This document shows, in pieces, positions 17,523-42,010 of a stretch of 64,000 nt of DNA. Under the pieces are notes generated by a model. That model saw only the letters and a list, made by a program, of their open reading frames with translations, ran no database searches and was not told the origin of the DNA. Made by a program: the position numbers and the translations under genes. Each line of letters starts with the position of its first letter. The stretch's first letter is position 1. The DNA comes from Chloroflexota bacterium. Its GTDB lineage: Bacteria > Chloroflexota > Dehalococcoidia > Lucifugimonadales > UBA3495. The stretch is from assembly GCA_002721995.1 (NCBI GenBank), contig PBMF01000040.1, positions 8,382 through 72,381 on the forward strand. Direction: 5' to 3'.

Positions 17523-17535
17523 GAGGTTTCTCATA

Positions 17536-18054: not shown

Positions 18055-18179
18055 TCTCCGTGCCATCAGACGCATTCCCTCTCAGGTGCTACCGTTTTGC
18101 ACGCCGGGAGGTAACCGGCCACCGATCAGCGGTGGGCACCGAACTGGCTGCTGCGGTCAGGACCCAAGAGGGGGCAGGC

Positions 18180-19399
18180 ATGACGGAACAGGGGGAGACG
18201 ATCGTCTCACTCGAGGGCGTCTACAAGATCTTCGGACCGGATCCGCGGGGGCGTGCGTACGACCTCGCCCGGGCCGGAGTGAGCAAGGACGAGGTCCAGC
18301 GACTCTCCGGCCACGTGGTCGGCATGACGGACATCTCGTTCGACGTGAAGAAAGGCGAGATCTTCGTGGTGATGGGCCTGTCGGGCTCGGGCAAGTCCAC
18401 GGCGATCCGCACGGTCAACAAACTCCACGACATCACGGCCGGCTCCGTGACCGTCGAAGGCGTCGACGTCCAGTCCCTCACCGGCTCGGCGCTCCAGACG
18501 TTCCGCCGGGAGAAGATGGGCATGGTCTTCCAGCACTTCGCCCTCTTCCCGCACCGGAACGTCATCGACAACACCGGCTACGGGCTCAAGGTGCAGGGCG
18601 TGCCCAAGCAGGAACGTGACGCCGCCGCCCTCAAGGCCCTGGCCATGGTCGGCCTCGAGGCCTACGCGCACAACGCCACAAGCCAGTTGTCGGGTGGCAT
18701 GCAGCAGCGTGTCGGCCTAGCGAGGGCCCTGTGCAGCGACCCGCCCATCCTGTTGATGGACGAGGCCTTCAGCGCCCTCGACCCGCTCATCCGCCGCCAG
18801 ATGCAGGACGAGCTGATGGCCATCCAGGAGCAGTTGCACAAGACCATCCTGTTCATCACGCACGACCTGAACGAGGCGCTGCGGATCGGCAACCGGGTCT
18901 GCATCCTGCGGGACGGCTATGTGGTGCAGATCGGCACGCCGGAGGAGATCCTGACGGAGCCCGCCGACGCCTACGTCGCCGAGTTCACCCAGGACGTCGA
19001 CCAGGGCCGGGTCATCGACGTCGTGAACGTCATGAAGGACCCGGTCATCATCCAGGCCTCCGACACGCTCGTCGGGGCCGTCGACCGGTTGGGCGACCGT
19101 CGTGGCGGCTTCACGGTCGACGCCGACGGGCGGCCCACCGGCCTCCTGTCGGTGGCCGAGGCCGCCGGCGCATTGGCCCACGGGACCACTTCCCTTGCCG
19201 ACGTCCTGCGGACGGACTTCGGCACGACGTCGGCGGAGGCCCGGCTGAACGAGAACTACGCCGCCGCCGGTCGGGGCTTACCGATCGCTGTCTGCGACGA
19301 CACGGGACGCCTCATCGGAGAGCTCGAGCCCCGTGAGATCATGGAGGAGATGGGCCGGGTCGAGCAGCTCATAGACGGCTTCGAGCGGGAGGTGTTCCT

Positions 19400-19403
<4 letters not shown>
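18180..19403 (+). CDS. proV: Glycine betaine/proline betaine ABC transporter ATP-binding protein with C-terminal CBS domains
   Basis: ORF track starts at 18060. ATG 18180 gives MTEQGETIVSLEGVYKIFG. Walker A GLSGSGKST, signature LSGGMQQRVGLARAL, and a ~130-aa C-terminal CBS-like tail. Confidence 0.9.
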
Positions 19404-21520
<2,117 letters not shown>

Positions 21521-26755: not shown

Positions 26756-26847
26756 GGTTGCTCCAGCGGATTCAGGTGGCGGCGGGGACCGCTGGAGGCT
26801 ACCGGCGGGTAGCCGCGAGGCCCGTGTCGGAGACGGTCACTCCCGGT

Positions 26848-28218
26848 TCAGCAGTCGTCGAAGTCGTCGGGCTCGAGTGACCAGGGGGAGAGGTTCTCGG
26901 GGCCGTCCTCGGTCACCAGCACCTGGTTCTCGAGCTTGACGCCCTGGCCGCCGGCGTATGCCCCCACGTAGGACTCGACGGTCAGGACCATGCCGGCTTC
27001 GAGCACGCCGTCGTAGCCGAACTCGTCCCACGACTCGGGGAACGTGATCGACGGCCACTCGTCGCACTGGCCTGCGCCGTGGAAGAGCACCGAGTAGTGC
27101 CGGTAGTCGTCGACGGAGGGCTTCTGGGAGTCGTGGCAGAGTTCGCGGAACGTGACCCCGGGACGGAGCAGGTGGATGTTGTCCTCGATCTGCCGGCGGG
27201 CCAGCTCGTACACCTGACGTTGGTCGTCGTCGAGGGGCCCGCCGCCGCAGATCCAGGTGCGGGAGATGTCGACCATCATCCCGTACGACCCGACCAGGTC
27301 GGTGTCGAAGGCGACCAGGTCGCCCTCCTGGATGACGTAGCTCGAGCACTCCTGGAACCACGGGTTGGTGCGTGGCCCGGCGGACAGCAGACGGCACTCC
27401 ATCCAGTCGCCGCCCCTCGCGAACATCTCGGCCCACAGCACCGCCCACAACTCCTGCTCGGAGATGCCGGGCCGGAGCGCCTCGAACATCCGCCGGCAGG
27501 CCACCCGGGCAGCCTCCAGCGAACAGCGCATGGCGAGGAGCTCGTCGGGTCCCTTGATGGCGCGAGCCCGTTCCATCACGGCCATGGCATCGACCAGTTC
27601 GAGGCCCTCGGACTGGAGCGCCTGGACGGCGTGGACCGGCATCGGGTCGGCGGCGATCCGGCCGCCCCCGGCCTCCCGGGCCAATTCGGCGATCTCACCG
27701 GCGAACAGGGCGGCCTTCTCGTCGCCCCGCTGGTCGGCGAGGAAGTAGGTGAAGCAGTTGGTGGGTCGGACCTCGGCGATGAGCGGGTTGTGGGCCGAGA
27801 GGAAGTCGCAGGCCGGATAGTCGAACAGGATGAGTGGACCCTCGGCGGGGACCCAGAGCCAGCGTGCCTCGTTGTGGGTGAACCACAGCTGCATGTTCGG
27901 CGCGTTCGTGGCGTACATGAGGTTCATGGGGTCGAACAGGAGGGCGCCGACGAGGTCGCATGCGACGAGTTCCTGCTGGATGCGGCCGACCCGGTACTCC
28001 TGCATGGCGTCCAGGTCGGGGAGTTGCAGGCCTGCGGCCGTCCACTCCGTGAATGCCGGCTCGCCCGGGCCGAGGACCACCCGGTTGCCCTCGGTGGCGG
28101 CCCGCTGGACGAGCGGGTCCTCAAAGGTCCGGCGGATCCTGGCGCTGGCACTTGTTGGTGCGCCCATGGGGCGCCTCCTCTCGTCGAATGGAAATTGGTT
28201 CGGTTGTGCGGTCCTCAA
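26848..28218 (-). CDS. M24-family metallohydrolase-fold protein, DddP-like (possible DMSP lyase family) or creatinase-like
   Basis: 456-aa ORF. A full M24 ligand set is visible (FDTDLVGSYGMMVDIS ... FHGAG ... TVESY ... KLENQ). The blocks FDPMNLMYATNAPNMQLW, KGPDELLAMRC and LLSAGPRTNPWFQEC match my memory of DddP sequences. Its start overlaps the upstream stop (28215-28218). Confidence 0.75.
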   Translation of the reverse strand: MRTAQPNQFPFDERRRPMGAPTSASARIRRTFEDPLVQRAATEGNRVVLGPGEPAFTEWTAAGLQLPDLDAMQEYRVGRIQQELVACDLVGALLFDPMNLMYATNAPNMQLWFTHNEARWLWVPAEGPLILFDYPACDFLSAHNPLIAEVRPTNCFTYFLADQRGDEKAALFAGEIAELAREAGGGRIAADPMPVHAVQALQSEGLELVDAMAVMERARAIKGPDELLAMRCSLEAARVACRRMFEALRPGISEQELWAVLWAEMFARGGDWMECRLLSAGPRTNPWFQECSSYVIQEGDLVAFDTDLVGSYGMMVDISRTWICGGGPLDDDQRQVYELARRQIEDNIHLLRPGVTFRELCHDSQKPSVDDYRHYSVLFHGAGQCDEWPSITFPESWDEFGYDGVLEAGMVLTVESYVGAYAGGQGVKLENQVLVTEDGPENLSPWSLEPDDFDDC

Positions 28219-30668
28219 CCCCGCATGCGCGACCCGTTGGGGTCCAACAGCGGCTGGTCCCGTCGGGTCGCCCTGCGGCGCACCCCCAGGACCTCGATCT
28301 CGAACTCGGTGGCGTCGGTGACGCCGACCGGCAGGTAGCCGAGGGCGCAGGAGGCCTGTGACCAGTGGGCGTAGCCGCCCGAGGTGGCCCAGCCGACGAC
28401 CTCGCCGTCGTGCCAGATGGGTTCGTCGCCGAGCACGTCGGCGGCGTCAGCGCCCTCGCCCGGCTCGAGTGTGAAGGCGCAGAGGCGACGTTGCGGTCCT
28501 GTCTCGCGTTCTGCCAGCACCGCGTCCCGGCCGATGAAGTCGCCCTTTTCCGGCTTGACGAAGCGGTCCATGCCGGCCTCGCCCGGCGTGTAGATGGGCC
28601 GGTATTCGGAGGCCCAGGCGCCGAAGTCCTTGTCGAAGCGCATGCTGTCGAGGGCTCGCAGGCCGAACGGCCGGATGCCGTGGGAGGCGCCGGCCCTCAT
28701 CAGGACGTCGAAGAGCCGGGCCTGGAGCGATGCGGGCACCCACAACTCGAAGCCCAGGTCGCCGGTGAAGGTGATTCGGCCAACGAGGGCGTCGACCATG
28801 CCGACGTCGAGTCGTCGGATGTCGAGGAAGCGGAACGCCTCGCCGGACACGTCGTCGTCGGTCAGGTCGCCGAGGACGTCCCGGGCGCGGGGCCCGGCGA
28901 TCGACAGGCCGGCCAGTTCGTGGCCGAGCGGCTGGTACGCCACGGAGCGGTCGTCGGCGAGGAGTGACCGGAACCAGCGTTCGTGGTAGCCCTCGGCGAC
29001 GCCCGAGCCCAGGACGAGGAACCGTTCGGTGCCGTCGAAGGGGTCGGCCAGCGTGGCCACGGTGAAGTCGCCGATGAGGCGGCCGTGATGGTTCAGCATC
29101 GGGGTCAGCGCCATCCGGCCGGCCGCGGGGATGCGGTTGGCCATGACCCGGTCGAGGAACGCCCGGGCGCCGGAGCCGGTGAACTCGTGCTTGGCGAAGC
29201 CCGTCGTCTCGATGAGGCCGACGCCCTCGCGCACGGCGGCGACCTCTTCGGCGACCACCGGGAAGGCGTTCGAGCGGTGGAACGTGACCTCCTCGACGGG
29301 CTCCTCGCCTCGGCGTTGGAACCAAAGCGCTGTCTCGAGTCCGTACGAGGCACCCCACACGGCGTTGGCCTCGGTGAGCGACCCGTGGATCGGTGAGGTG
29401 TGCAGCGGCCGGCCGACGGGGAGCTCCTCGTTCGGGAAGGTGATGCTGAAGCGCCGGCTGTAGTTCTCCATCACCTTGGCGCGGGTGTAGGAGGGGGTGG
29501 TCCAGTCGCCGAACCGGGCCACGTCCATGCCCCAGATGTCGAAGCCGGGGTCGCCGGTCGTGATCCAGTTGGCCATCGACAGCCCCACGCCGCCGCCCTG
29601 GGACAGTCCGGCCATGACGCCGCACGCCACCCAGTGGCCGCGCTGGCCGCGGACCGGGCCGATGACCGGGTTGCCGTCGGGGGCGAACGTGAACGGGCCG
29701 TTGACGACCGTCTGGATGCCGGCGTCGGCGTAGATCGGGAAGTGCTCGAAGCCCAGTTCCAGCGACGGGGCGATCCGGTCGAGGTCGGGGGTGAGCAGTT
29801 CGTCGGCGAACGTCCAGGGGGTCTCGCGGACCGACCAGGGAACACAGGCCTTCTCGTAGGTGCCGAGCAGCAGGCCCTCGCCCTCGGCCCGGAGGTAGAT
29901 CTCGCCGCCGAAGTCGATGGCGCCGCGGCCCTGGCCGCCGGTCTCGTCGAGCCAGGGCTTCAGTTCCGGGATCGGCTCGGTCAGGAGGTACATGTGCTCC
30001 ATGGCGAGGATCGGCAGTTCGAGTCCGCACATGCGACCGACCTCGCGGGCCCAGAGTCCACCACAGTTGACGAAGTGCTCGCAGGCGATCTCGCCCGTGT
30101 CGGTCTCGAGGATCCACGTGCCGTCGGGGCCCGGGCGGATGGCCCGGACCCACGTGTTCTGGTGGACCTCGGCGCCGGCCTGGCGGGCAGCGGCGGCGTA
30201 CGCCTTGGTGACGCCCGTGGGGTCGACGTGGCCGCCGACCGGGTCCCAGAGGGCGCCGACGAAGTGCTGCTCCTCCATGAACGGGATCAACGCCTTGGCC
30301 TCCGACGGTGTGATCATCTCGGTCTGCATGCCGAGGTAGCGGCCGCGGGCGTGCGACATCCGCAGCCAGTCGAGGCGGTCGACGTCGTCGGCCAGCATCA
30401 CCTCGCCGGTGAGGTGGATGCCGCACGACTCGCCGGAGCGGGCCTCGAGGTCCTTGTAGAGCTGGACGGTGTAGCGCTGGAGGGCGGCCACGTTGGGGTC
30501 GCCGTTGATGGTGTGCATGCCGCCGGCGGCGTGCCACGTGGAGCCGGCGGTGAGGTGCTTCCGCTCGAGCAGGACGGCGTCGGTCCAGCCGGCCTCGGTG
30601 AGGTGGTAGAGGACGCTGGCGCCGACGACGCCGCCGCCGATCACGACGACCTGTGCCTGGGATTTCAC
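28215..30668 (-). CDS. Dimethylglycine/sarcosine dehydrogenase-like flavoprotein (FAD oxidoreductase + GcvT folate-binding domain)
   Basis: 817-aa ORF. N-terminal VVVIGGGVVGASVLYHL. STWHAAG motif (position of the covalent-FAD histidine in this family, from memory). C-terminal aminomethyltransferase-like half. Confidence 0.88.
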   Translation of the reverse strand: MKSQAQVVVIGGGVVGASVLYHLTEAGWTDAVLLERKHLTAGSTWHAAGGMHTINGDPNVAALQRYTVQLYKDLEARSGESCGIHLTGEVMLADDVDRLDWLRMSHARGRYLGMQTEMITPSEAKALIPFMEEQHFVGALWDPVGGHVDPTGVTKAYAAAARQAGAEVHQNTWVRAIRPGPDGTWILETDTGEIACEHFVNCGGLWAREVGRMCGLELPILAMEHMYLLTEPIPELKPWLDETGGQGRGAIDFGGEIYLRAEGEGLLLGTYEKACVPWSVRETPWTFADELLTPDLDRIAPSLELGFEHFPIYADAGIQTVVNGPFTFAPDGNPVIGPVRGQRGHWVACGVMAGLSQGGGVGLSMANWITTGDPGFDIWGMDVARFGDWTTPSYTRAKVMENYSRRFSITFPNEELPVGRPLHTSPIHGSLTEANAVWGASYGLETALWFQRRGEEPVEEVTFHRSNAFPVVAEEVAAVREGVGLIETTGFAKHEFTGSGARAFLDRVMANRIPAAGRMALTPMLNHHGRLIGDFTVATLADPFDGTERFLVLGSGVAEGYHERWFRSLLADDRSVAYQPLGHELAGLSIAGPRARDVLGDLTDDDVSGEAFRFLDIRRLDVGMVDALVGRITFTGDLGFELWVPASLQARLFDVLMRAGASHGIRPFGLRALDSMRFDKDFGAWASEYRPIYTPGEAGMDRFVKPEKGDFIGRDAVLAERETGPQRRLCAFTLEPGEGADAADVLGDEPIWHDGEVVGWATSGGYAHWSQASCALGYLPVGVTDATEFEIEVLGVRRRATRRDQPLLDPNGSRMRG

Positions 30669-30721
30669 GGGTGGGGCGTTCCTGAGGTCACGGGGTGGGT
30701 GGGGGAGCCGGGGTTCCGCGG

Positions 30722-32251
30722 TCAGTAGTCGGTCTCGACGCCGCCTTCGGCGACGCGACGGGCAAGGAACTCGTCGAGTTCTTGGCGGCGGTCCTCGGGC
30801 ATCGGTGGCTCTTCATGGGCGGCGAGGACCTGGTGGGCCAGCTTCTCGGCGCGCTGGTGGGCCTCGAGGCGGCCCGTGTCGTCCCAGTTCTCGAAGTTGG
30901 TCCACGACGAGACCATCGGCTGGAAGTGCTCGGAGGTGTAGCGCTCCCGGGTGTGGGCGGTGCCGAAGAAGTGGCCGGCCGGACCGACCTCGGCGATGGC
31001 CTCGACGGCGAGCGTGGCGTCGTCGACCACGAGCGGCTTGAGCATCTCGGTGACGCCGTTGAGGAGGTCGGCGTCGATGATCATCTTCTCGTAGGAGGTG
31101 AGGAGGCCGCCCTCGAGCCAGCCGGCGCCGTGCAGCAGGAGGTTGACGCCGCCCATGACGGCGCCCCAGATGGCGATGACGCTCTCGTAGGCGGACTGGG
31201 CATCGACGCTGTTGGAGGCGTTGACGTTCGAGGAACGGAAGGGGAGCCGGTAGCGACGGGCCAACTGGCCGCTGACGAGGCAGGCCTTCCAGTACTCGGG
31301 GGTGCCGAAGGCGGGGCTGCCGGAGCGCATGTCGACGTTCGAGGTGAAGCCGCCGTAGCAGACGGGCGCGCCGGGTCGGACCACCTGGGTGTAGGCGATC
31401 CCGGCGAGGGCCTCGGCGTTCTGGAGAACGAGGGCGCCGGCGACGGTCACGGGGGCCATGGCGCCGGCCAGCGTGAACGGCGTGATGATGATCAGTTGGT
31501 TGCGGGCCGACATCTCCTGGATGCCGTGGAGCATCACGGTGTCGTAGCGCAGCGGTGTGCTGGCGTTGATCACCGAGTAGATCGAGGGCTGGTCGCAGAT
31601 GGTGACCTCGTCGACGCCGCGGGCGATGCGGGTCATCTCGATGGCGTCCAGGTTGCGCGGCCGACTGAGGCTGTAGACGAACGGGACCTTGTCCGAGAGC
31701 GTCAGCATGTCGTGGGTGGCCTCGAGGTGCCGGATGGACGGGTGCAGGTCCATGGGTTCGACGGGGTATCCCGCCACCGTGTGGATGGCGTTGAGGACCT
31801 GCCCCATCTTGATGAGGTTCCGGTAGTCGTCCCGGTTGCCGTCGCGCCGGTCGCGTCCCAGGCCGGTGACGAAGGGCGGGCTGGCAACCGACGTGTAGAT
31901 GATGTGGTCGCCGCCGAACACGAGGTCTCGGTGGGGGTCGCGGCCGTGCAGGGTGAACTGGTGTGGCGCCGTCGAGATCAGGCGTTCGACGAGGTCGGGG
32001 TCAAACCGGACCCGTTGGCCGTCGACGTCGGCGCCGGCGTCGGCCAACTGGCGGCAGGCGGTGTCGTCGAGGAAGTCGATGCCGGTCTCGGCGAGGACCC
32101 GCAGCGACGCCTGGTGGATGGCCTCGAGCTCGTCGTCGGACACGGCACGGATGGGGTCGAGCAGCATCCGGGGCTGCTCCCACGGTGGCTGTTCGGCGAT
32201 GACGTCGCGGACTTTGGGCCGGCTGCTGCGCTGCCCGCGGCGCGCACTCAT
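30722..32251 (-). CDS. MttB-superfamily (trimethylamine methyltransferase-like) protein, non-pyrrolysine type
   Basis: 509-aa uninterrupted ORF with no internal TAG. LSDDELEAIHQASLRVLAETGIDF near the N-terminus is typical of PF06253 members. Its ATG overlaps the iclR-type stop. Confidence 0.85.
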   Translation of the reverse strand: MSARRGQRSSRPKVRDVIAEQPPWEQPRMLLDPIRAVSDDELEAIHQASLRVLAETGIDFLDDTACRQLADAGADVDGQRVRFDPDLVERLISTAPHQFTLHGRDPHRDLVFGGDHIIYTSVASPPFVTGLGRDRRDGNRDDYRNLIKMGQVLNAIHTVAGYPVEPMDLHPSIRHLEATHDMLTLSDKVPFVYSLSRPRNLDAIEMTRIARGVDEVTICDQPSIYSVINASTPLRYDTVMLHGIQEMSARNQLIIITPFTLAGAMAPVTVAGALVLQNAEALAGIAYTQVVRPGAPVCYGGFTSNVDMRSGSPAFGTPEYWKACLVSGQLARRYRLPFRSSNVNASNSVDAQSAYESVIAIWGAVMGGVNLLLHGAGWLEGGLLTSYEKMIIDADLLNGVTEMLKPLVVDDATLAVEAIAEVGPAGHFFGTAHTRERYTSEHFQPMVSSWTNFENWDDTGRLEAHQRAEKLAHQVLAAHEEPPMPEDRRQELDEFLARRVAEGGVETDY

Positions 32252-33030
32252 CGTGTCTCCCCGGGGTTCGGCCGTTGCATCCCGGGCTGGTACCCGAGCT
32301 GCACCGAGACCTCGGCGGCGTGCCGTCGCACCAGTTGGGCGATGTCGTCGGCCCGGTCGTCGGGTGGGAAGCGGTAGGCGGGGCCGTATGCGTAGAGGGC
32401 GCCGACGGCGCGGCCGTCGGGCCCGACGATCGCCGAGGCGCAGCTGGTGAGACCGTCCACGTACTCGCCCTCCGACCAGGCGACGCGCTGCTCGACGGTG
32501 TCGGCGATCCGGGCCCGTAGGACGGCCGGGTCGGTGACGGTGCGGTCGGTGAACCGGGTGAGTTCGACGTCGAGGAAGGCGTCGAGCTCATCGACGGGCC
32601 AGGTCGCCAGGACGACGAGGCCGACCGAGCCGGCGTGGTGGGGGATCCGCTCGCCGGTCCAGTCCTCGACGCGGATGGGTTTGGGGCCGTCGACCTGGCG
32701 GATGGTCACGGTGTCGCGACCGACGACGATGGAGAGGCAGGCGGCTTCGTCGAGCTGCCGGGAGAGTTCCATGAGGTGGGGGTCGGCCATGGTCTGGAGG
32801 TCGACGACGGGGTCGGGCGTGCCGCGCATCTGACGGATCCGTCGGCCGATCCGGTAGGTGCCGTCGTCGTCGCGCTGGACGGCGTGTGCCTCCTCGAGGG
32901 TGGCGAGCAGCCGCGCCACCGTGCTGGTCGGCAGTTGGACGCGATCGGTGAGTTCGACGAGGCGCCCAGGTCGCCGGCCGATCTGGTCGAGGAGCGCGAG
33001 TGCGCGTTCGACGCTCTGCACGGTCTGCAT
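32248..33030 (-). CDS. IclR-family transcriptional regulator
   Basis: ORF track starts at TTG 33066. ATG 33030 gives MQTVQSVERALALLDQIG, the usual IclR HTH opening. C-terminal effector-domain length is appropriate. Confidence 0.85.
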   Translation of the reverse strand: MQTVQSVERALALLDQIGRRPGRLVELTDRVQLPTSTVARLLATLEEAHAVQRDDDGTYRIGRRIRQMRGTPDPVVDLQTMADPHLMELSRQLDEAACLSIVVGRDTVTIRQVDGPKPIRVEDWTGERIPHHAGSVGLVVLATWPVDELDAFLDVELTRFTDRTVTDPAVLRARIADTVEQRVAWSEGEYVDGLTSCASAIVGPDGRAVGALYAYGPAYRFPPDDRADDIAQLVRRHAAEVSVQLGYQPGMQRPNPGETR

Positions 33031-33038
33031 CGGCACAC

Positions 33039-33088
33039 AGAGTACCGATATACGGGAATCTGTCAATAAGTTTCCGCATAGCGGAAAC
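33039..33088 (-). promoter_or_regulatory. Candidate promoter plus palindrome upstream of the iclR-mttB operon
   Basis: Minus strand: palindrome gtttccgc-tat-gcggaaac (33070-33088), then TTGACA (33066-33061), a 16-nt spacer, TACTCT (33044-33039), and ATG at 33030 (near-leaderless). Locally AT-rich within ~70% GC DNA. The palindrome followed by ttatt could instead terminate the upstream operon. Confidence 0.35.
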
Positions 33089-33108: not shown

Positions 33109-34335
33109 TCAGCCGTCGAGGCCCTCCGAGAACGGAATCGGATCGGGCTCGGGCATGAGGTGGAGGTCATCGCCCTCGTAGGGGTGTGCCCGGGCCACGT
33201 CCTCGTTCAGAACGACGCCGAGGCCGGGCTCCGACGAGGGGATGACGCGGCCGTCCTCCCAACGGATCGGTGTCTCCAACAGGTCGGCGTGGAAGCCGTC
33301 CCAGGTGCCGATGGATTCGAGGACCAGGAAGTTGGGCGTGCAGGTCGCCAGGGCGATGTTGGCGGCAGCCACCACCGGGCCGCAGTAGCAGTGGGGGGCG
33401 AGTACGGCATGGTGGACCTCGGCCACCGAGGCGATCTTCTTGCCCTGCAGGATCCCGCCGCTGCGGCCCAGGTCCGGTTGGAGGACCTGGGCGGCGCCGG
33501 CTCGCAGCACGGCGGCGAACTCCGAAAGTGTGGTCAGCCGCTCGCCCGTGGCGATCGGGATCGTGGTGCCGCGGGCCACGGCGGCCATGCCCTCGACGTC
33601 GTCGGGAGGTATGGGCTCCTCGAACCAGAGCGGGTCGTAGGGCTCGAGCCGCCGGGCCAGCCGCAGTGCCCCCGAGGGCGTGAACTGGCCGTGGGTGCCG
33701 AACAACAGGTCGGCCCGGTCGCCCACCGCCTCGCGGATCGCCGCCGTGTAGCGCTCGGAGAGGTCGAGGCGTTCGAGCGACGGCTGACGCCCGTCGTACA
33801 CCGTGTAGGGGCCGGCCGGGTCGAACTTGACGGCCGTGAAGCCCTGCTCGACGGCGGCGACCGCAGCGGCGGCGGCCAGGTCGGGGTCGGTGTAGAGGTT
33901 GGGGCCGTCCTTGGGGGCGTAGGCGTCGTCGCCGTCCGGATAGAGATAGGTGTACGAGCGCAGGCCCTCGTGGACCCGGCCACCCAGCAGGTCGTACACG
34001 GGCCGGCCGGTCTCCTTGCCGATGAGGTCCCAACAGGCCATCTCGAGGGCGCTCATCACGCCGCACAGGGTCGGGTCCGGCCGGGAGGCGTAGCCGCTCC
34101 CGTAGGCGCGCCGCCAGAAGGACTCGACGTCGAAGGGGCTCTGCCCGACCAGCCAGCGGTCGGCCACGTCCTCGATCATCCTGGCCACGAGGTGGGGGTC
34201 GAAGGTGGCGACGTAGGCCTCGCCGACGCCCTTCCCGCCGCTGTCGGTGGTGAGCGTCACGAAGATGAAGTAGCGGCCGCCGTGGCGCGGTGGCGGGTTG
34301 GCGACGACGAACGTCTCGACGTGGTCGATCCTCAT
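33109..34335 (-). CDS. Enolase-superfamily enzyme (mandelate racemase/muconate lactonizing enzyme family)
   Basis: Within ORF 33109..35166, ATG 34335 gives MRIDHVETFVVANPPP...SALEMACWDLIGKETGRPVYDLLGG. The ATG overlaps the upstream TGA (ATGA). Confidence 0.85.
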   Translation of the reverse strand: MRIDHVETFVVANPPPRHGGRYFIFVTLTTDSGGKGVGEAYVATFDPHLVARMIEDVADRWLVGQSPFDVESFWRRAYGSGYASRPDPTLCGVMSALEMACWDLIGKETGRPVYDLLGGRVHEGLRSYTYLYPDGDDAYAPKDGPNLYTDPDLAAAAAVAAVEQGFTAVKFDPAGPYTVYDGRQPSLERLDLSERYTAAIREAVGDRADLLFGTHGQFTPSGALRLARRLEPYDPLWFEEPIPPDDVEGMAAVARGTTIPIATGERLTTLSEFAAVLRAGAAQVLQPDLGRSGGILQGKKIASVAEVHHAVLAPHCYCGPVVAAANIALATCTPNFLVLESIGTWDGFHADLLETPIRWEDGRVIPSSEPGLGVVLNEDVARAHPYEGDDLHLMPEPDPIPFSEGLDG

Positions 34336-35456
34336 GGGCTGGCTCCCGGGTCGGTTCCGTTGGGCAGGACCACCGTCCGGAGCACCTCGCCACGGCGGAC
34401 CTCGTCGAAGGCGGCGTCGATGTCCTCGAGGGGATGCGTGGACGACACGAGGGCGTCGAGCTCGAGGTCGCCCGAGCGGTAGTGGCCGAGCAGGCGGGGG
34501 ACGTCCTCGGCCAGCCGGACGGTGCCCATCTTGGAGCCGAGGATTCGCTTGTTCGCCGCGGCCAGGAGCGAGGGGTCGACGTCGAAGGCGACGCCGTCCG
34601 GGGGCATGCCGACCAGTACGAGCGCTCCCATGGGCTCGAGCAGGTCGACGGCCCCGTCGAGGGCGGCGGGGTTGGCCGTGGTGACGAACACGTGGTCGGC
34701 CAGTCGGCCGCCGGTCGCCTGGCAGAGGGTTCCGGCCACGTCGCCGGCGACCGGGTCGACGGCGTGGGTGGCGCCGAATGCCAGCGCCGATGTGCGCTTG
34801 TCGGCCAGTGGGTCGACGGCCACGATCGGGTCGGCGCCGGCCAGGCGTGCCCCCTGGAGGGCACCGATGCCGACGCCTCCGCAGCCGACGACGACCACGG
34901 CGTCCCCGGCGGCCACACGTGCCGTGTTGTGGACCGAACCGGCACCGGTGAGCACACCGCAGGCCAGCAGCGATGCCGAGACGGCCGGAACGTCCTCCGG
35001 ATGGGCGACCAGTTGGGTGCGGTGGACGACGACCTGCTCGGCGAAGGCGCCGGTGTTGAGCCCCTGGGCGACTGGTTCGCCGACGGCGTCGGTGAGCAGC
35101 GGCCGCTCGTCGAGGGAGAAGTCGCCCGCGCAGGCCACGTGGTGGCCGCGGCGACAGGCCGGGCACTCGCCGCAGGTCCGGACGAGCGAGACCACCACCG
35201 GGTCACCGACGGCCAGGTCGTCGACGCCGGCACCGAGTTCGAGCACCCGGCCGGCGGCCTCGTGGCCCATCACCAGCGGGAAGTCCGTGGTCCAGCCACC
35301 GTCCACGTACATCAGGTCCGAGTGGCAGACGGCGCAGGCGTCGACGCGGACCCGCACCTCGCCGGGGCCGGGCGCGGCCAGGACCAGTTCCTCGATCGAC
35401 TGCGGTCCGCCCACGCCCCGGCAGACGGCCGCACGGATCGTGGTCCCCTCCGGCAC
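34332..35456 (-). CDS. Zinc-dependent alcohol dehydrogenase family (class III / formaldehyde-dehydrogenase-like)
   Basis: Within ORF 34332..36386, GTG 35456 gives (M)PEGTTIRAAVCRG. Zn motifs CAVCHSD, GHEAAG and CGECPACRRG. GxGxxG as VVGCGGVG. Confidence 0.85.
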   Translation of the reverse strand: MPEGTTIRAAVCRGVGGPQSIEELVLAAPGPGEVRVRVDACAVCHSDLMYVDGGWTTDFPLVMGHEAAGRVLELGAGVDDLAVGDPVVVSLVRTCGECPACRRGHHVACAGDFSLDERPLLTDAVGEPVAQGLNTGAFAEQVVVHRTQLVAHPEDVPAVSASLLACGVLTGAGSVHNTARVAAGDAVVVVGCGGVGIGALQGARLAGADPIVAVDPLADKRTSALAFGATHAVDPVAGDVAGTLCQATGGRLADHVFVTTANPAALDGAVDLLEPMGALVLVGMPPDGVAFDVDPSLLAAANKRILGSKMGTVRLAEDVPRLLGHYRSGDLELDALVSSTHPLEDIDAAFDEVRRGEVLRTVVLPNGTDPGASP

Positions 35457-35488: not shown

Positions 35489-36499
35489 TCAGCCGAGGAC
35501 GAGTTCGGCGGCCTGGCGCAGCTGCTCGGGGGAGCGGGCTGCCACGTTGAGCATCGTGACCGGGCTGTCCTCCCAGGCGGCGAGGCGTTCCCGGATCCGG
35601 GCGGGTGGGCCGACGAGGCTGATCTCGTCGGCGAAGTCGGCGGGCACCGCCTCGATGGCCTCGTCGCGTCGACCTTCGAGGAAGAGCTCCTGGATGCGCA
35701 GGGCCTCCTCCTCGAAGCCCATCCGGGCCATGAGCTTGGTGTGGTAGTTCTGGCCCTTGGCGCCCATGCCGCCGATGTAGAAGCCCAGGCTGGCCCGGAC
35801 GGAAAACAGTCCGGCCTCGACGTCGTCGGTGACGTTGAAGGAGACGTTCACGGCGATCTCGAAGCCCTCCCGGCGACCGGCGATCTGGTCGGCGTAGACC
35901 TCCTGGCGCCAGGGGGAGTAGTAGAGCGGCAGCCAGCCGTCGGCGATTTCGGCGGTCTGGGTGACGTTCCTCGGTCCCTCGGCGCCGAGGAAGATCGGCA
36001 CATCGGTTCGCAGCGGGTGGGTCATCACCTTCAGCGGCTTGCCGAGCCCCGTCGAGCCTTCGCCGGTGTACGGCAGGGGCCAGAACTCGCCGTCGTTGCG
36101 GAGGTGCTCCTCTCGGGCGAAGGCCCGGCGCAGGATGTCGACGTACTCGCGGGTGCGGGCCAGAGGCCGGTTGGAGGGCTGCCCGTACCAACCCTCCACG
36201 ACCTGGGGGCCGGACACGCCGAGTCCGAGGATGAGGCGGCCGTTCGAGAGGTGGTCGAGGGTGACGGCGTGCATGGCGGTCGCCGTGGGCGTGCGGGCCG
36301 ACATCTGGACGATGCCGGTGCCGAGTCGGATTCGCTCGGTCTGGGAGGCCAGCCAGGCGAGTGGCGTGAAGGCGTCGGACCCCCACGACTCGGCGGTCCA
36401 GACGGCGTCGAACCCGAGCCGCTCTCCCTCCTGGACGAGGGGGACGAGGTCGGTCGGGGGCTGTGCCCCCCAGTAGCCGAGGGTCAGGCCGAGTTGCAT
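35489..36499 (-). CDS. LLM-class (F420-dependent-type) oxidoreductase
   Basis: ATG 36499 gives MQLGLTLGYWGAQPP...FDAVWTAESWGSDAFTPLAWLA...LGLGVSGPQVVEGWYG. Confidence 0.85.
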   Translation of the reverse strand: MQLGLTLGYWGAQPPTDLVPLVQEGERLGFDAVWTAESWGSDAFTPLAWLASQTERIRLGTGIVQMSARTPTATAMHAVTLDHLSNGRLILGLGVSGPQVVEGWYGQPSNRPLARTREYVDILRRAFAREEHLRNDGEFWPLPYTGEGSTGLGKPLKVMTHPLRTDVPIFLGAEGPRNVTQTAEIADGWLPLYYSPWRQEVYADQIAGRREGFEIAVNVSFNVTDDVEAGLFSVRASLGFYIGGMGAKGQNYHTKLMARMGFEEEALRIQELFLEGRRDEAIEAVPADFADEISLVGPPARIRERLAAWEDSPVTMLNVAARSPEQLRQAAELVLG

Positions 36500-36573
36500 G
36501 CCGTCATCGTCGCAGCGGACGGCGGGGTGGGCCAAGCCACCGGCGCTCCGGGCGCTGGCCTAGCCTCCCGGCG

Positions 36574-38640
36574 ATGGAGGGGTATCCCCGGCAGCAGGCC
36601 CGGACCCGGCGCTTCACCTGCGGGGCGCCCCGCACGGTGTCGGTGTCCGACGACGGGTCCCGGGTGCTGTTCCTGCGGTCGGCGGGGGGCGACAACCCGG
36701 TGAACGCCCTCTGGCGCCTCGATCCGGCGACGGGCGACGAGCACTTGGTCGCCGACCCGGACACCCTCCTCGCCGACGGCGGGCCGGAGACCGACCGTGA
36801 GCGGGCCCGCCGGGAGCGTGCCCGGGAGGTGGGCGGCGGGATCACCGCCTACGACGGCCTGCCCGACCTGTCCCGGGTGTGCTTCGTGCTGGCCGGGCGG
36901 GTGTTCCTCGCCGACGTCGACGAGGGTCGCGTGGTCGAGCTGGCCTCTAGCGGCGACGCCTTCGACCCCCGGCTGTCCCCCGACGGGGCGACCGTCGCCT
37001 ACGTGTCGGGCCGCGGCCTCTGGGCCACCGGCGCGGGCGGCGACCATCGGCTGATCGGCGGGACCACCGCGACGGTCTCGTGGGGGTCCGCCGAGTTCGT
37101 GGCCGGCGAGGAGATGGGTCGGATGCGCGGCCACTGGTGGGCGCCCGACGGCGGCAGCCTGCTGGTCGTCCGGGTGGACGAGGAGCCGGTCGCCGAGTGG
37201 TGGATCTCGGCGCCGGTCGACCCGGATGCGGCGCCGCGGGCGATCCGCTACCCGGCGGCCGGGACCGCGAACGCGGTGGTGGGCCTGGGCGTCGTGGCCC
37301 TCGATGGCTCGGTCGTGGACGTGGATTGGAGTCGGGACGGCGTTTTCGAGTACCTGGCCGGCGCCCAGTGGTGCGCCGACGGTCCACCGTTGCTGGTGGT
37401 GCAGTCACGCAACCAGCGCACCCTGGTCGTGCTGGAGGTCGAGGTCTCGGACGGTTCCACCAGCGAGGTGTACCGGGTGGAGGACGAGGCCTGGGTCGAA
37501 CTGGTCCCGGGGTCGCCGTGCCGGTGGGACGGGTCGCTCGCCACCGTCGAAGACCGGGACGGGGCCCGTCGGCTCGTGGTCGACGGCGAGGCGGTCACCC
37601 CCGACGGACTGCAGGTGCGGCGCATCGTCGGCGTGGACGGCGACCGGCTCGTGGTGTGTGCATCGTCGGATCCGCTGGACATAGATGTCGTGGCGTTCGG
37701 TCGCGACGGGACGGTCGACGTGTTGTCGTCGGGTGGTGGCGTGCGCAGCGCCGTGGTCGGCGGCGGCGTGTTGGCCGTGTCGGTGGCGGACCTCGAGCGC
37801 CCACGCCTCGAGATCGCGGGGCACGTCGTGGCCTCCCACGCCGAGGAGCCGGTCGTGTCGGCGATGCCGACGTTCCACGTGGTCGGGGAGCGGGACCTGC
37901 GAGCCGCGGTGCTCCTCCCCACGGACTGGTCGATCGAGGAAGGGTCGCCCCTGCCGGTGCTGCTCGACCCCTACGGCGGGCCGCACGCCCAGCGGGTGCA
38001 GCGGACCCGGGGGCAGTTTCTCACGTCGCAGTGGTTCGCCGACCGGGGGTTCGCGGTGGTCGTCACCGACGGCCGCGGCACGCCGGGTCGTGGCCCCGCT
38101 TGGGAGCGGGCGGTGCGGGGTGACCTGGCCGGCCCGGTGCTCGACGACCAGGTCGACGCCCTCCACGCACTAGCCGAGGCCGACGACCGCCTCGACCTGT
38201 CCCGGGTGGCGATCCGGGGCTGGTCGTTTGGCGGCTACCTCGCCGCCCTGGCCGTGCTCGCCCGCCCCGACGTGTTCCACGCCGCCGTGGCGGGGGCGCC
38301 GGTCACCGACTGGCGGCTCTACGACACGCACTACACCGAGCGCTACCTCGGCCACCCCGACGAGGAGCCGGACAACTATGGGTGCACCGACCTGTGTGCC
38401 CTGGCGGGGTCGCTGGGCGACGACGTGCCGGTGCGGCCGTTGCTGCTGGTGCACGGCCTGGCCGACGACAACGTGGTCGCCGCCCACACGCTGCAACTGT
38501 CACGGGCGCTGCTCGAGGCGGGCCGTCCCCACCGGGTGCTGCCACTCTCGGGCGTGACGCACATGACGCCCCAGGAGGACGTCGCCGAGAACCTCCTGCT
38601 GCTGCAGTTGGACTTTCTCAACGAGGCGCTGGGTCGCTGA
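36574..38640 (+). CDS. S9-family serine peptidase (dipeptidyl-peptidase IV-like: beta-propeller + alpha/beta hydrolase)
   Basis: ATG 36574 (MEGYPRQQART). C-terminal catalytic triad contexts GWSFGG, HGLADDNV and GVTHM. Confidence 0.85.
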   Translation: MEGYPRQQARTRRFTCGAPRTVSVSDDGSRVLFLRSAGGDNPVNALWRLDPATGDEHLVADPDTLLADGGPETDRERARRERAREVGGGITAYDGLPDLSRVCFVLAGRVFLADVDEGRVVELASSGDAFDPRLSPDGATVAYVSGRGLWATGAGGDHRLIGGTTATVSWGSAEFVAGEEMGRMRGHWWAPDGGSLLVVRVDEEPVAEWWISAPVDPDAAPRAIRYPAAGTANAVVGLGVVALDGSVVDVDWSRDGVFEYLAGAQWCADGPPLLVVQSRNQRTLVVLEVEVSDGSTSEVYRVEDEAWVELVPGSPCRWDGSLATVEDRDGARRLVVDGEAVTPDGLQVRRIVGVDGDRLVVCASSDPLDIDVVAFGRDGTVDVLSSGGGVRSAVVGGGVLAVSVADLERPRLEIAGHVVASHAEEPVVSAMPTFHVVGERDLRAAVLLPTDWSIEEGSPLPVLLDPYGGPHAQRVQRTRGQFLTSQWFADRGFAVVVTDGRGTPGRGPAWERAVRGDLAGPVLDDQVDALHALAEADDRLDLSRVAIRGWSFGGYLAALAVLARPDVFHAAVAGAPVTDWRLYDTHYTERYLGHPDEEPDNYGCTDLCALAGSLGDDVPVRPLLLVHGLADDNVVAAHTLQLSRALLEAGRPHRVLPLSGVTHMTPQEDVAENLLLLQLDFLNEALGR

Positions 38641-39506: not shown

Positions 39507-40543
<1,037 letters not shown>

Positions 40544-40547
<4 letters not shown>

Positions 40548-41335
40548 CGTCGGAAATCCCGCCCCGGCAGCCAGCGGTCGCGGAGGGGGAGCAGGACGGC
40601 CAGGGCCACGACCAGCATCACGAGGCTCAGGGCCAGGGCCCGCTCGGGTTGGGCCTCGAGGGCCAGGAAGGTGGCGAGGGGCAGCGTCTGGGTGCGGCCG
40701 GGCAGGTTGCCGGCGAACGTGATGGTGGCGCCGAACTCGCCGATGGCCCGGGCCCAGGCCAGGGCCAGCCCGGCGCCCATGGCTGGCAGTAGCCGGGGGC
40801 GGGTCACCCGCCAGAGCACCAGGCGGGGCGGGGCGCCCAGCGTGGCGGCCACGCCCTCGAGGTCGTCGAGTTCCCGGCGGGAGGCCTGCAGTGCCCCCTC
40901 CACGGCGAGCACGTAGAAGGGGAGTGCCACGAAGGTGGCGGCGACGATGGCGCCGCCGAGCGTGAACGGCAGGGTGAGGCCGAACCAGCGGTCCAGCCAC
41001 TGGCCGACGAGGCCCCGCCGCCCGAGGGCGAACAACAGGGCGGTGCCGCCCACGACGGGCGGGAGCACCATGGGCAGCACGACCAGGGCCCGGACGAGGC
41101 GCCGGCCCGGCAGGTCGACCCGGGCGAGCGCCCAGGCCAGCGGCGTGCCCAGGAGGAGGACGACCGCGGCGGCGACCAGGCTGACGACCAGCGAGACGCG
41201 CAGCGCGTCGAGGACGACTGCGTCGCCCAGAAGGTCGGGGAGTGCCGTCCACGGCATCCGCTGGAGGAGGCCCAGCACCGGCAGGCCGAGCACCAGCACG
41301 GCGACACCGGCCAGCGCCAGCAGGAGGCGCTTCAC
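40544..41335 (-). CDS. modB: Molybdate ABC transporter permease
   Basis: GTG 41335 overlaps the modA TGA (GTGA). The EAA-type loop region ASRRELDDLEGVAATLGA and the motif IGEFGATITFAGN are typical of ModB/CysT-type permeases. Confidence 0.85.
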
Positions 41336-41997
41336 CGGTCGAACCCGTGTGCGTCGAGGATGCCCGCCGCGACGTCCGACGCCAGGAACCCGACGAACCG
41401 CTCGCCGGCCGGGGTGAGTGCGGCGGCCACGTAGCCGACGGAGGCCGGCAGGTCGGCGATCGCTTCGACGCCGTCGCTGGACAGGACGTCCGTGGCGTAG
41501 ACCACGCCGACGTCGGCCTCGCCGAGTGCCAGCCGTGAGACGACGGCACGGACCGACGCCTCCTCGGTGTCCTGGGCGAGGGGGAGGCCCAGCCGGCGGG
41601 TGGCCGCACCGCAGGGGACGGGCTCGGCGCACACGGCCACCCGGAGGTCCGGGACGGCGAGGGCGTCGGGGCCGGTGACGCCGGCGGGGTTGCCAGCCGG
41701 GACGGCGAGGACGAGGCGGTTCGTCGCGAACGGGACGGCCTCGACGCCGGCGGGAAGCAGGTCCGGGTCGGCGGTGAGGAACACGTCGGCCGGGACGCCG
41801 TCGCGGACCTGCGCGGCCAGGTGGCTCGACCCGCCGAACACGAGGGTGCCGGCCTCGCCGCCCCGCTGCTCGTGGGCGCTCGCCAACTCGGGCAGCACGT
41901 CGGTCAGCGACGAGGCGGCGAGGATCGTGGGGCCGGCCGCCGTGCTGCCGCAGGCGGATAGGAGGGTGAGCAGCGTGAGCGCGACGAGGGTCCGCAT
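41332..41997 (-). CDS. modA: Molybdate-binding lipoprotein
   Basis: 221-aa ORF with lipobox LLSAC. ILAASSLTDVL and VFLTAD blocks are typical of ModA. Confidence 0.85.
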   Translation of the reverse strand: MRTLVALTLLTLLSACGSTAAGPTILAASSLTDVLPELASAHEQRGGEAGTLVFGGSSHLAAQVRDGVPADVFLTADPDLLPAGVEAVPFATNRLVLAVPAGNPAGVTGPDALAVPDLRVAVCAEPVPCGAATRRLGLPLAQDTEEASVRAVVSRLALGEADVGVVYATDVLSSDGVEAIADLPASVGYVAAALTPAGERFVGFLASDVAAGILDAHGFDR

Positions 41998-42010
41998 CCC
42001 GGGACCGTGT

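Follow-up and report, generated by a model that had tools for sequence, protein, structure and literature searches.

The Rieske-type betaine clusters, GbcAB/DgcAB of Pseudomonas and the Stc2/StcD stachydrine genes of Sinorhizobium, carry out two-step betaine N-demethylation by oxygenase chemistry, whereas methyltransferases of the MttB superfamily, to which the Rieske demethylases are not homologous, act by corrinoid methyl transfer. In MtgB of Desulfitobacterium hafniense (2qne/9yce; PMC13080624) the carboxylate is held by R312 and H348, and Y97 and F356 form a cation-pi pair for glycine betaine; when Y97 is changed to A or F356 to L, Km goes up several hundred-fold. The aerobic marine heterotroph Ruegeria pomeroyi also has a non-pyrrolysine PF06253 methyltransferase, in its MtgB/MtgC/MtgD system (Mausz et al. 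2025, PMC12478193). MttB genes beside DMGDH-type genes have been described in aerobic marine bacteria since that work; the genes for the corrinoid and pterin partners may lie elsewhere, and in the R. pomeroyi system it is normal for corrinoid partners to be encoded in trans. Among the proteins induced in that organism is DddP (SPO2299), which with DMSP absent rises by a factor of 12 to 33 on glycine betaine, choline or carnitine (Dataset S1: log2 3.6 on carnitine, 4.1 on choline, 5.0 on GBT and 4.9 on succinate plus GBT), together with MtgB1/2, MtgC and three aminomethyltransferase-family proteins. Close relatives of classical DddP are DMSP and DMSOP lyases by experiment (PMC10686828); the kinetics of DddP on DMSP are poor (Km 13.8 mM), and the identity of validated DddPs to RdDddP extends down to 50% and 32% (PMC4108388).

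The locus described here lies in a 64,000-nucleotide stretch of Chloroflexota DNA (the window), in which iclR, mttB, a DMGDH-like gene and an M24 gene are four consecutive minus-strand ORFs (within 26848-33088) with a GC3 of 0.89-0.94, a high-GC coding signature (Table 1). A preliminary description, made from the sequence, had named the four families as IclR, MttB, DMGDH-like and DddP-like M24. These names hold: Pfam domains were found in all four proteins, and PF06253, PF01266 with PF01571, and PF00557 were each matched where expected.

Table 1. Features of the locus and its surroundings, in window coordinates
Feature	Position	Strand	Basis or remark
ProV ATPase	18060-19403	+	TIGR01186, 354 bits (cutoff 326.6)
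ProW-like permease, 400-aa C-terminal extension	19400-21520	+	5.3 kb from M24 stop
SDR oxidoreductase, 315 aa	25808..26755	-	probable last operon gene
DddP-family M24 metalloenzyme, 439 aa	26848..28167	-	PF00557+PF01321
DMGDH-like flavoprotein, folate-binding GcvT half, 817 aa	28215..30668	-	PF01266+PF16350+PF01571+PF08669 (DAO + FAO_M + GCV_T + GCV_T_C)
mttB, non-pyrrolysine MttB-superfamily methyltransferase, 509 aa	30722..32251	-	PF06253, 625.6 bits, full length
iclR, IclR-family regulator, 260 aa	32248..33030	-	PF09339+PF01614 (HTH_IclR + IclR_C)
Promoter-like element	33039..33066	-	TTGACA (33066-33061), 16 nt, TACTCT (33044-33039); read from sequence
8+3+8 perfect palindrome GTTTCCGC-ATA-GCGGAAAC	33070..33088	.	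candidate operator for IclR, 3 nt before the -35
MR_MLE, enolase superfamily	33109-34335	-	upstream gene
Zn-ADH	34332-35456	-	upstream gene
F420-dependent LLM oxidoreductase	35489-36535	-	upstream gene

Translational coupling had been claimed at two junctions, and one of the two is real. The iclR stop and the mttB start overlap at 32248-32251 as ATGA, with a GGGGAG SD sequence 5 nt upstream, and the 53 nt given between mttB and the DMGDH-like gene was measured as such. The overlap of the DMGDH-like and M24 genes at 28215-28218, however, depends on the TTG start of the longest ORF. The most likely start of the M24 gene is ATG 28167, which has a GAGGAGG SD sequence (28174-28180) 6 nt ahead, is the gene callers' choice on six independent contigs, and aligns with the start codons of relatives. 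The two genes are therefore separated by 47 nt, with no overlap. A TTG start for iclR at 33066 was rejected because this TTG forms the first bases of the consensus -35 TTGACA; the gene begins at ATG 33030, as called on public contigs.

A promoter-like AT-rich patch and a palindrome had been proposed upstream of iclR. The palindrome was confirmed, occurs only once in the window at 0 mismatches, and has a degenerate counterpart at the matching place before iclR in a related locus (L008). The promoter, by contrast, was absent from a formal scan, since a search for the sigma-70 consensus upstream of iclR gave no promoter at threshold; the -10 candidate has 3/6 consensus matches, and L008 shows the same arrangement (TTGACC-16 nt-TAATCT-9 nt-ATG). 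As the iclR ATG is only 8 nt downstream of the -10 candidate, the iclR mRNA probably has little or no leader. Every NCBIfam match of the IclR protein is under its cutoff, the best being BhcR (121 bits, cutoff 350).

It is clear from a survey of related loci that the conserved unit is the MttB-DMGDH-M24 trio rather than the four-gene set. The trio occurs in that order at 21 loci from 9 lineage groups, including Acidimicrobiia, Roseibium, Mesorhizobium and Propylenella, and is the sole gene set common to all of them; identity to the window proteins is 48-86% for MttB, 54-84% for DMGDH and 47-79% for M24. In 16 measured loci from two phyla the three genes lie on one strand in constant order, a recurrence that is more than chance. 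The co-occurrence proposed for four families thus stands for the three enzymes and not for IclR, which occurs at 2/8 loci in the clade of the window and at 0/13 of the remaining trio loci. Likewise, the claim that the four genes form one unit is upheld for the three enzymes, linked by synteny, but IclR falls outside the conserved set and the operon is longer. In four relatives (L007, L011, L017, L020) the MR_MLE stop and the mttB start share 4 nt, so the operon extends upstream (LLM-ADH-MR_MLE); it probably also extends downstream to the SDR gene, which lies 3' of the M24 gene in 5/8 loci of the window's clade. The 92-nt M24-SDR gap contains a hairpin, GGCTACC-CGCC-GGTAGCC (26797-26814). Neighbours in the clade are LLM, ADH, MR_MLE, SDR, ECH and ACAD. 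The operon proper has seven genes (F420-LLM, ADH, enolase-family, MttB, DMGDH, M24, SDR), and iclR is an insertion into it that is specific to the lineage.

The window MttB has 4yyc, 2qne and 9yce as its best PDB matches and scores 304 against TIGR02369, under the 525 cutoff. At the MtgB positions Y97/R312/H348/F356 it has A/R/H/G, so that the carboxylate holders are kept and the aromatic pair is lost; because of this loss, glycine betaine may not be its substrate. A motif scan of the window, and of 10 kb around every trio locus, found no corrinoid-protein gene; there is no mtgC, mtgD or ramA within the 64-kb window, and no methyl-THF methyltransferase partner at the locus. The module is incomplete on its own.

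The DMGDH-like protein scores 540 bits against rat DMGDH (4p9s) and 299 against Arthrobacter DMGO (1pj5), and its LTAGSTWHAAG stretch aligns to an identical stretch in rat DMGDH; we take STWHAAG to be the covalent-FAD histidine motif. At least one further DMGDH-like paralogue (824 aa, L094/L095) is present in the same population.

The DddP-like assignment of the M24 protein was borne out, with 376 bits to RdDddP (4rzy) against <=60 bits to prolidases, and no creatinase chain among the matches listed at E<=1e-5. Because it groups with DddP, the objection that it belongs with creatinases or Xaa-Pro peptidases does not apply. Its score against the NCBIfam DddP model NF043017 is 435 bits, under the equivalog cutoff of 600, and a simple NJ tree places it in an actinobacterial clade, outside the validated clade that bears RdDddP. 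The nine DddP catalytic residues are all kept, namely the six metal ligands (D295, D297, D307, H371, E406, E421) and W95, Y366 and D377. These residues are identical across the whole family and hence of no use for separating substrates.

Both the conserved synteny and the co-induction of the corresponding proteins in R. pomeroyi support a functional link between the three enzymes. The reading we prefer, with about an even chance of being correct, is that the block is an operon under IclR control through which a marine, high-GC bacterium would break down zwitterionic methyl-onium osmolytes. The osmolyte would be taken up through the nearby ProVW-type importer. A betaine-type importer had been noted about 5 kb away, and the ProV and ProW-like permease stand, also near the cluster in L007, L008, L011, L017 and L020, but an OpuAC-type binding domain was looked for in this transporter and none was found. 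Starting from an acidic quaternary amine, either glycine betaine or a carboxy- or phospho-betaine of somewhat greater size, the MttB-family enzyme would take off the first methyl and pass it to a corrinoid protein encoded elsewhere, as with MtgB/MtgC/MtgD. The DMGDH-like flavoenzyme would then oxidise the next N-methyl, the C1 unit going to tetrahydrofolate via the GcvT half. As a parallel branch of the same regulon, the DddP-family di-metal enzyme would cleave a 3-onium-propionate, DMSP for example, by beta-elimination, or alternatively a close analogue imported by the same uptake system. IclR, on the palindrome beside its own -35, may set expression of iclR-mttB-DMGDH-M24(-SDR), with read-through from the upstream LLM-ADH-MR_MLE genes possible.

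Alternatively, the three enzymes could form one linear nitrogen-betaine pathway in which the DddP-family enzyme acts on a nitrogen compound and not on DMSP, whose cleavage would be a family side activity; this we consider rather unlikely. For example, beta-alanine betaine could be converted by MttB to N,N-dimethyl-beta-alanine, the protonated form of which is isosteric with DMSP, and this could lose a further methyl through the DMGDH-like enzyme and/or be split to amine and acrylate by M24. The tight operons with fixed gene order and gaps of 1-92 nt at many loci argue for such a pathway, as do the poor kinetics on DMSP, the induction of R. pomeroyi DddP by N-osmolytes, and the three-gene operons of Rieske, reductase and M24 genes in soil and insect-gut bacteria, where a non-homologous demethylase replaces MttB. 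Furthermore, every MttB adjoining a DddP-family gene has small residues at 97 and 356 and keeps R312/H348, implying a more spacious pocket that would take an acidic onium compound. Soil Mesorhizobium, in which no DMSP would be expected, carries the trio as well, and this fits a single N-compound pathway better than a DMSP branch. Against this, the route from beta-alanine betaine is argued from chemistry only, and a literature search found no paper that connects alanine betaine with DMSP lyase and acrylate. It would also be redundant for a lyase and a second demethylase to share one intermediate, and close relatives of classical DddP are lyases by experiment; the invariant catalytic residues do not decide.

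A route for choline or phosphocholine on the model of Eubacterium limosum MthB/MthK, in which MttB would demethylate phosphocholine, the DMGDH-like enzyme strip further methyls and the di-metal M24 enzyme act on the phospho-ester, is improbable. MthB uses phosphocholine and keeps the Arg (PMC12155760, PMC13080624), and suggestive genes adjoin the alphaproteobacterial trio loci: an APH-family kinase in Roseibium, a PLD-like protein in Mesorhizobium and a PF12974 phosphonate-binding-type protein in both (with homologues in all three alpha genera); Parasedimentitalea has a glycerophosphodiesterase. All of these are absent from the window's clade, however, the APH match is weak (32.5 bits), and no earlier example of a phosphatase in the DddP family came to light. 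More improbable still is that an ordinary betaine demethylation pair has an M24 peptidase or creatinase as a chance neighbour. Many relatives do bear the name 'Xaa-Pro peptidase family protein' in source records and NCBI PGAP, and the score below the equivalog cutoff would agree with this, but the adjacency is seen again and again, in two phyla and with two kinds of demethylase that are not homologous, and both the bit scores and the DddP-specific Y366 and D377 set the protein apart from peptidases. The DddP of Roseovarius nubinhibens is reportedly without peptidase activity.

The association is not limited to the trio. An N-demethylation gene (MttB, DMGDH-like, GbcA/Stc2-like Rieske, StcD-like or SoxB) lies within 10 kb in 38/81 DddP-family loci. 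Annotated plasmids carry a DMGDH-like, M24 and MttB gene with soxBDAG in Parasedimentitalea, DddP adjoining Rieske, reductase and flavin oxidoreductase genes in Loktanella, and Rieske, reductase and M24 genes with ProVWX in Rhizobium and with a GlxA-type regulator in Paraburkholderia; a Rieske-type betaine cluster of Pseudomonas MPC6 also has a DddP-family M24 gene. The recurrence of the trio in distant bacteria points to a tie between DddP-type enzymes and the breakdown of nitrogen osmolytes, a link that appears undescribed in the literature searched. It is the DddP-like member that is the uncharacterised part of the arrangement.

Among known systems, the locus resembles the Mtg system of R. 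pomeroyi, where DMGDH-type follow-on demethylase genes also lie nearby, but here MttB, DMGDH-like and DddP-like genes are joined in one operon with an IclR regulator. The window MttB shares the TIM-barrel superfamily with D. hafniense MtgB (307 bits), but differs in having no adjoining corrinoid-protein gene and in a Trp four residues past the His (GAGW), as in S. meliloti 4yyc. The DMGDH-like protein has the four-domain architecture of mammalian DMGDH (rat 4p9s, human 5l46) and Arthrobacter DMGO. The M24 protein has the M24 fold and creatinase-like N-domain of the DddPs of Roseobacter denitrificans (4rzy), Ruegeria lacuscaerulensis (4b28) and Roseovarius nubinhibens, and its identity to RdDddP (44.6%) falls inside the span of validated DddPs; unlike classical DddP, it is operonic with N-demethylases, and its lyase activity is predicted. 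The two-step N-demethylation proposed here is that of the Rieske clusters, reached by different chemistry.

The four genes of the cluster were assigned by Pfam to the families given in the table, and in each case the family named in the preliminary description was borne out. The ATGA overlap of iclR with mttB and the 53 nt between mttB and the DMGDH-like gene were also as described there. The overlap proposed between the DMGDH-like and M24 genes arises only when the longest ORF is read as the gene; the M24 start is ATG 28167, which has a Shine-Dalgarno sequence (GAGGAGG) 6 nt upstream, was also the start chosen in six public contigs and agrees with the M24 starts of the orthologues, none of which overlap the DMGDH stop. 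Similarly, the TTG proposed as the iclR start belongs to a perfect TTGACA -35 hexamer. Given the spacing from palindrome to -35, -10 and ATG, the iclR mRNA would have little or no leader, and in the related locus L008 iclR is preceded by the same layout with diverged sequence. A consensus promoter and terminator scan gave no promoters and no relevant terminators; the candidate iclR promoter was missed by this generic scan because its -10 matches at only three of six positions. The IclR protein contains an N-terminal HTH_IclR domain (40.8 bits) and a C-terminal IclR effector domain (102.2 bits), and reached no named NCBIfam equivalog.

Coordinates of features in the window and, where indicated, in the loci compared with it
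Feature	Position	Strand	Remarks
Left low-GC piece	1-17570		Amidohydro_2 x3, P450, SDR, ferredoxin
ProW-like permease, 706 aa	19400-21520		400-aa C-terminal extension
M24 protein, 439 aa	26848-28167	-	Pfam
DMGDH-like protein, 817 aa	28215-30668	-	Pfam
MttB-superfamily protein, 509 aa	30722-32251	-	Pfam
IclR regulator	32248-33030	-	Pfam
Palindrome GTTTCCGC-ATA-GCGGAAAC	33070-33088		upstream of iclR; then 3 nt, TTGACA, 16 nt, TACTCT, 8 nt, ATG
ADH	34332-35456	-	class III / mycothiol-formaldehyde-dehydrogenase-like
LLM	35489-36535	-	F420-dependent oxidoreductase, Rv3520c family, related to methylene-H4MPT reductases; starts extended operon
S9/S15 peptidase	36574-38640	+	divergent from LLM gene; kept in 6 clade loci
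ModABC molybdate transporter and ModE-like MerR/TOBE regulator	39507-42403	-	upstream of cluster
Opp/Dpp-type ABC transporter	42834-46560		
Fusion of Peripla_BP_6/ANF_receptor and SBP_bac_5, 982 aa	46596-49544	-	unusual double binding protein, upstream of Opp/Dpp-type transporter
Right low-GC piece	60507-64000		UbiX-like flavoprotein, MFS, HpaB, UbiD, GntR
RidA (L-PSP) gene	L070 5050-5433; L081 6783-7163		between mttB and DMGDH-like gene
Alternative high-GC context after the ACAD gene, with second DMGDH-like gene (824 aa)	L094/L095 13026-13215		same population as window
B12-binding motif (DIHDIGKN...)	L076 ~10481		Limnocylindria locus

Relatives of M24 were surveyed with one genome per species, and the 80 loci were compared with all neighbouring window proteins. 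Only the MttB, DMGDH-like and M24 genes are common to all 21 loci with this trio, which represent nine lineage groups including Ilumatobacter, Microthrix-like MAGs, Roseibium, Propylenella and Mesorhizobium. The order of the trio never varies and all three genes lie on one strand, with gaps from 1 nt (L032) up to around 3.6 kb with other genes between. In the window's own clade the longer order LLM-ADH-MR_MLE-MttB-DMGDH-M24 is common to eight loci, where an SDR gene mostly comes next after M24, then ECH/ACAD genes and ProVW. Because iclR is present in this cluster only in the window lineage and L008, and in four loci (L007, L011, L017 and L020) the end of MR_MLE and the start of mttB share 4 nt, iclR with its own promoter is predicted to be an insertion into a longer operon. 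The four-gene unit originally proposed is thus retained for the MttB, DMGDH-like and M24 genes, with iclR removed from its core.

The LLM and ADH products might handle C1 units from the demethylases. The identification of MR_MLE as an HpbD-type hydroxyproline betaine epimerase was unsupported, the top NCBIfam matches being galactonate/gluconate dehydratases, all below cutoffs. Orthology of the window ADH and MR_MLE with those flanking DddP of Paracoccus yeei was also rejected, since 24-27% identity shows a relationship at superfamily level only; the P. yeei plasmid (L097) carries hydantoinase A/B genes near DddP. In Propylenella and one Mesorhizobium a RidA gene lies within the trio, and DddP also has RidA genes nearby in Oceanisphaera (L100) and Loktanella (L098), which may point to an intermediate of reactive imine or enamine type. 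A PF12974 'phosphonate-binding'-type protein (~265 aa) is encoded just 3' of M24 in all eight alphaproteobacterial trio loci (L030, L050, L070, L072, L074, L080, L081 and L085), and in six of these an FA_desaturase-family protein (~305 aa) forms a pair with it; in L074 and L085 clustering gave no call. On an Alisedimentitalea plasmid (L102) FA_desaturase and Rieske-type ferredoxin genes are immediately 5' of M24.

The M24 protein scored 376 bits against RdDddP, the DddP of Roseobacter denitrificans (PDB 4rzy), versus at most 60 bits against prolidases, and no creatinase chain was among the matches listed for it at E<=1e-5. It keeps all six di-metal ligands (D295, D297, D307, H371, E406 and E421) and the proposed catalytic Asp377, Tyr366, plus Trp95; the D377 position is the residue altered in mutant structure 4s01. 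A creatinase or prolidase is ruled out by these scores and residues, and at the level of sequence the match to solved DddP structures is unambiguous. The metal ligands, W95, Y366 and D377 are invariant in 82 family members, while distant members encoded beside Rieske oxygenases show one change only, W95 to Met in one sequence. Therefore, these residues define the DddP family and cannot separate substrates. Identity to RdDddP is 44.6%; validated fungal DddPs have 50% and 32% (PMC4108388). On the NCBIfam DddP equivalog NF043017 M24 reaches 435.1 bits against a cutoff of 600, and the trio-type proteins 448-508 bits, all below it, on a scale where Loktanella scores 870, L055 631, Oceanisphaera 626 and Roseovarius 605. 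In a neighbour-joining BLOSUM62 tree built without bootstraps or fungal ratified sequences, M24 was separated from the classical group and fell among actinobacterial proteins in a clade of their own. The resemblance to a DMSP lyase noted earlier holds for the label 'DddP-like', and the role of DMSP lyase is a prediction.

The MttB protein matched PF06253 at full length (625.6 bits, residues 4-504 on profile 1-500). It was rejected as a trimethylamine methyltransferase proper, as its ORF of 509 codons has no pyrrolysine codon (in-frame UAG); its TIGR02369 score was 304 bits, with a cutoff of 525. The best solved relatives are a S. meliloti protein (4yyc) and MtgB, the glycine betaine methyltransferase of Desulfitobacterium hafniense. 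In a 2026 active-site study of MtgB, Y97 and F356 touch the trimethylammonium group as a cation-pi pair, and R312 and H348 touch the carboxylate (PMC13080624). At Y97/R312/H348/F356 the window protein has A, R, H and G, so that in comparison with D. hafniense MtgB it retains only the Arg/His, with small residues in place of the aromatic pair; a D. hafniense-type MtgB was rejected on the absence of this pair. All DddP-adjacent MttBs of at least 35% identity to the window protein, which form three identity tiers, read A/S/T-R-H-G, with two exceptions, the Parasedimentitalea protein and a distal second copy in L015, that read G/D-R-Q-G. The pocket pattern resembles that of paralogues for larger betaines (PMC13080624). 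Glycine betaine is still a possible substrate, as a Trp that lies four residues beyond the His could stand in for the cation-pi contact.

A B12-binding motif scan gave a corrinoid partner neither in the window nor at any of the trio loci; across the window and all loci its matches were out-of-frame or antisense save one real motif, in an ORF neighbouring the DddP-family gene of the non-trio Limnocylindria locus L076. A three-component corrinoid methyltransferase system at the locus was rejected, the cognate corrinoid and methyl-corrinoid:THF methyltransferase genes being absent from the window. In Ruegeria pomeroyi the corrinoid protein MtgC and pterin methyltransferase MtgD serve methionine synthesis too and are encoded apart from the mtgB genes (PMC12478193); since this is so, it is plausible by analogy that the partners are encoded in trans.

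The DMGDH-like protein is closer to mammalian DMGDH (540 bits) than to Arthrobacter DMGO (299 bits), has DAO, FAO_M, GCV_T and GCV_T_C domains, and reached no NCBIfam equivalog. Its LTAGSTWHAAG aligns to rat DMGDH; the STWHAAG stretch is, we presume, the covalent-FAD His motif. Other contigs of the same population (L093-L095) carry, in an alternative high-GC context beyond the ACAD gene, a second DMGDH-like gene and a DAO-family gene, and therefore the organism has several N-methyl oxidase paralogues. The proposed betaine importer proV-proW was supported for ProV, which scored above cutoff, and less so for the ProW-like permease, whose scores of 231-240 bits are below the equivalog cutoffs. 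Residues ~300-706 of the permease gave no Pfam match and hence contain no OpuAC binding domain, and no binding-protein gene for the transporter was seen.

The GC content of the window falls into three parts, ~52% (1-17,570), ~71% (17,570-60,506) and ~55% thereafter, and the four-gene cluster lies within the high-GC block. Genes of this block have identical copies on contigs from marine metagenomes, Tara Oceans among them, and the closest relatives of its proteins carry Acidimicrobiia or Actinomycetota MAG labels. The switches are abrupt (~52% to ~71%), directly after stop codons (17520-22 and 60504-06). An assembly chimera was excluded, as both junctions are seen again in independent metagenome assemblies (L087-L096), and an E. 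coli source for the low-GC flanks was dropped when megablast gave no match. Other contigs of the population stay high-GC (L093-L095) or link the low-GC piece with different genes (L090). The low-GC pieces look like variable catabolic islands within a high-GC genome; tRNA or integration marks were looked for and none were found.

Across 81 DddP-family loci, a sample biased towards relatives of the window M24, an N-demethylation-type gene lay within 10 kb in 38 (MttB in 26, DMGDH-like in 23, GbcA/Stc2-like Rieske in 6, SoxB in 4 and StcD-like in 2). Proteins above the DddP equivalog cutoff are encoded beside an MttB gene in Roseovarius L078 (605 bits) and in L055 (631 bits). The annotated Parasedimentitalea plasmid pW43C carries DMGDH-like, M24, MttB, LysR and soxBDAG genes. 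On other annotated plasmids, DddP of Loktanella (82% to RdDddP) is beside a Rieske oxygenase, a reductase and an NADH:flavin oxidoreductase, and Rieske, reductase and M24 genes occur together in Rhizobium acidisoli, with ProVWX and hydroxyproline epimerase, and in Paraburkholderia, with a GlxA-type regulator. In Pseudomonas MPC6 M24 adjoins a BCCT transporter, and a gene for a Rieske alpha subunit lies upstream together with FAD oxidoreductases. From the MttB-type and Rieske-type neighbourhoods it follows that one M24 family occurs with two types of betaine demethylase that are not homologous to each other.

The best-supported reading is an osmolyte regulon: an acidic betaine would be demethylated by MttB, whose corrinoid partners would be encoded in trans, and by the DMGDH-like enzyme, and the DddP-family enzyme would cleave a DMSP-type compound. 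Its main rival is a single nitrogen pathway, with the M24 enzyme acting on a demethylation intermediate or analogue. In its favour are the tightness and conservation of the operon, carriers that live in soil, the operons of Rieske, reductase and M24 genes and the pocket signature common to DddP-associated MttBs; its proposed chemistry, in which 3-ammonio-propionates are isosteres of DMSP, is purely inferred. Alternatively, a phosphocholine route is hinted at by the kinase, PLD, GDPD and phosphonate-binding-type neighbours in Alphaproteobacteria, but the window's clade is without these.

A wider claim, which we consider rather unlikely and put forward tentatively, is that the physiological role of the DddP family is N-methylated osmolyte catabolism, with DMSP cleavage secondary, the trio being the core of an undescribed betaine pathway in marine Acidimicrobiia and Alphaproteobacteria in which DddP enzymes act on a betaine demethylation intermediate or analogue. 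This would cover genes that are routinely scored as DMSP lyases when ocean metagenomes are surveyed; the copies in Acidimicrobiia count towards DMS-producing potential (PMC7494906, PMC13280387). Should these copies be members of betaine-catabolic operons, some of the inferred DMS potential may have been wrongly assigned, and sulfur- and nitrogen-osmolyte breakdown may be co-regulated in marine bacteria much more tightly than assumed. The trio would also carry the recently found cobalamin-dependent betaine demethylation route in aerobes over to marine actinobacteria, and it draws attention to MttB paralogues whose pocket is not of the glycine betaine type. Culturable carriers (Roseibium denhamense JCM 10543, Mesorhizobium muleiense, M. 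tamadayense and Parasedimentitalea marina W43) allow a direct test. MttB and DMGDH-type genes in aerobic marine bacteria are already known. Nothing relevant on a DddP-MttB link was found in the literature searched; neither an operonic DddP-family member beside MttB/DMGDH, nor a family-wide link of DddP to betaine demethylation, nor a shared pocket signature of DddP-associated MttBs was found in those papers.

The closest known system is that of R. pomeroyi, where SPO2299 is presumably dddP. Dataset S1 of the study of its MtgB/MtgC/MtgD glycine betaine demethylation system lists SPO2299, annotated 'DMSP lyase', among the proteins most strongly induced on carnitine, choline and glycine betaine, and its main text makes no mention of this induction (PMC12478193). 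The increases were significant (log2 3.6 on carnitine, 4.1 on choline, 5.0 on glycine betaine and 4.9 on succinate plus glycine betaine), with 14-21 peptides in the four conditions versus 1-4 in the control, and DMSP was not added (PMC12478193). The co-induced set comprised MtgB1, MtgB2, MtgC, RamA and three aminomethyltransferase-family proteins (PMC12478193). Thus three types of protein are co-induced in R. pomeroyi, and in the window the same three types form one predicted operon.
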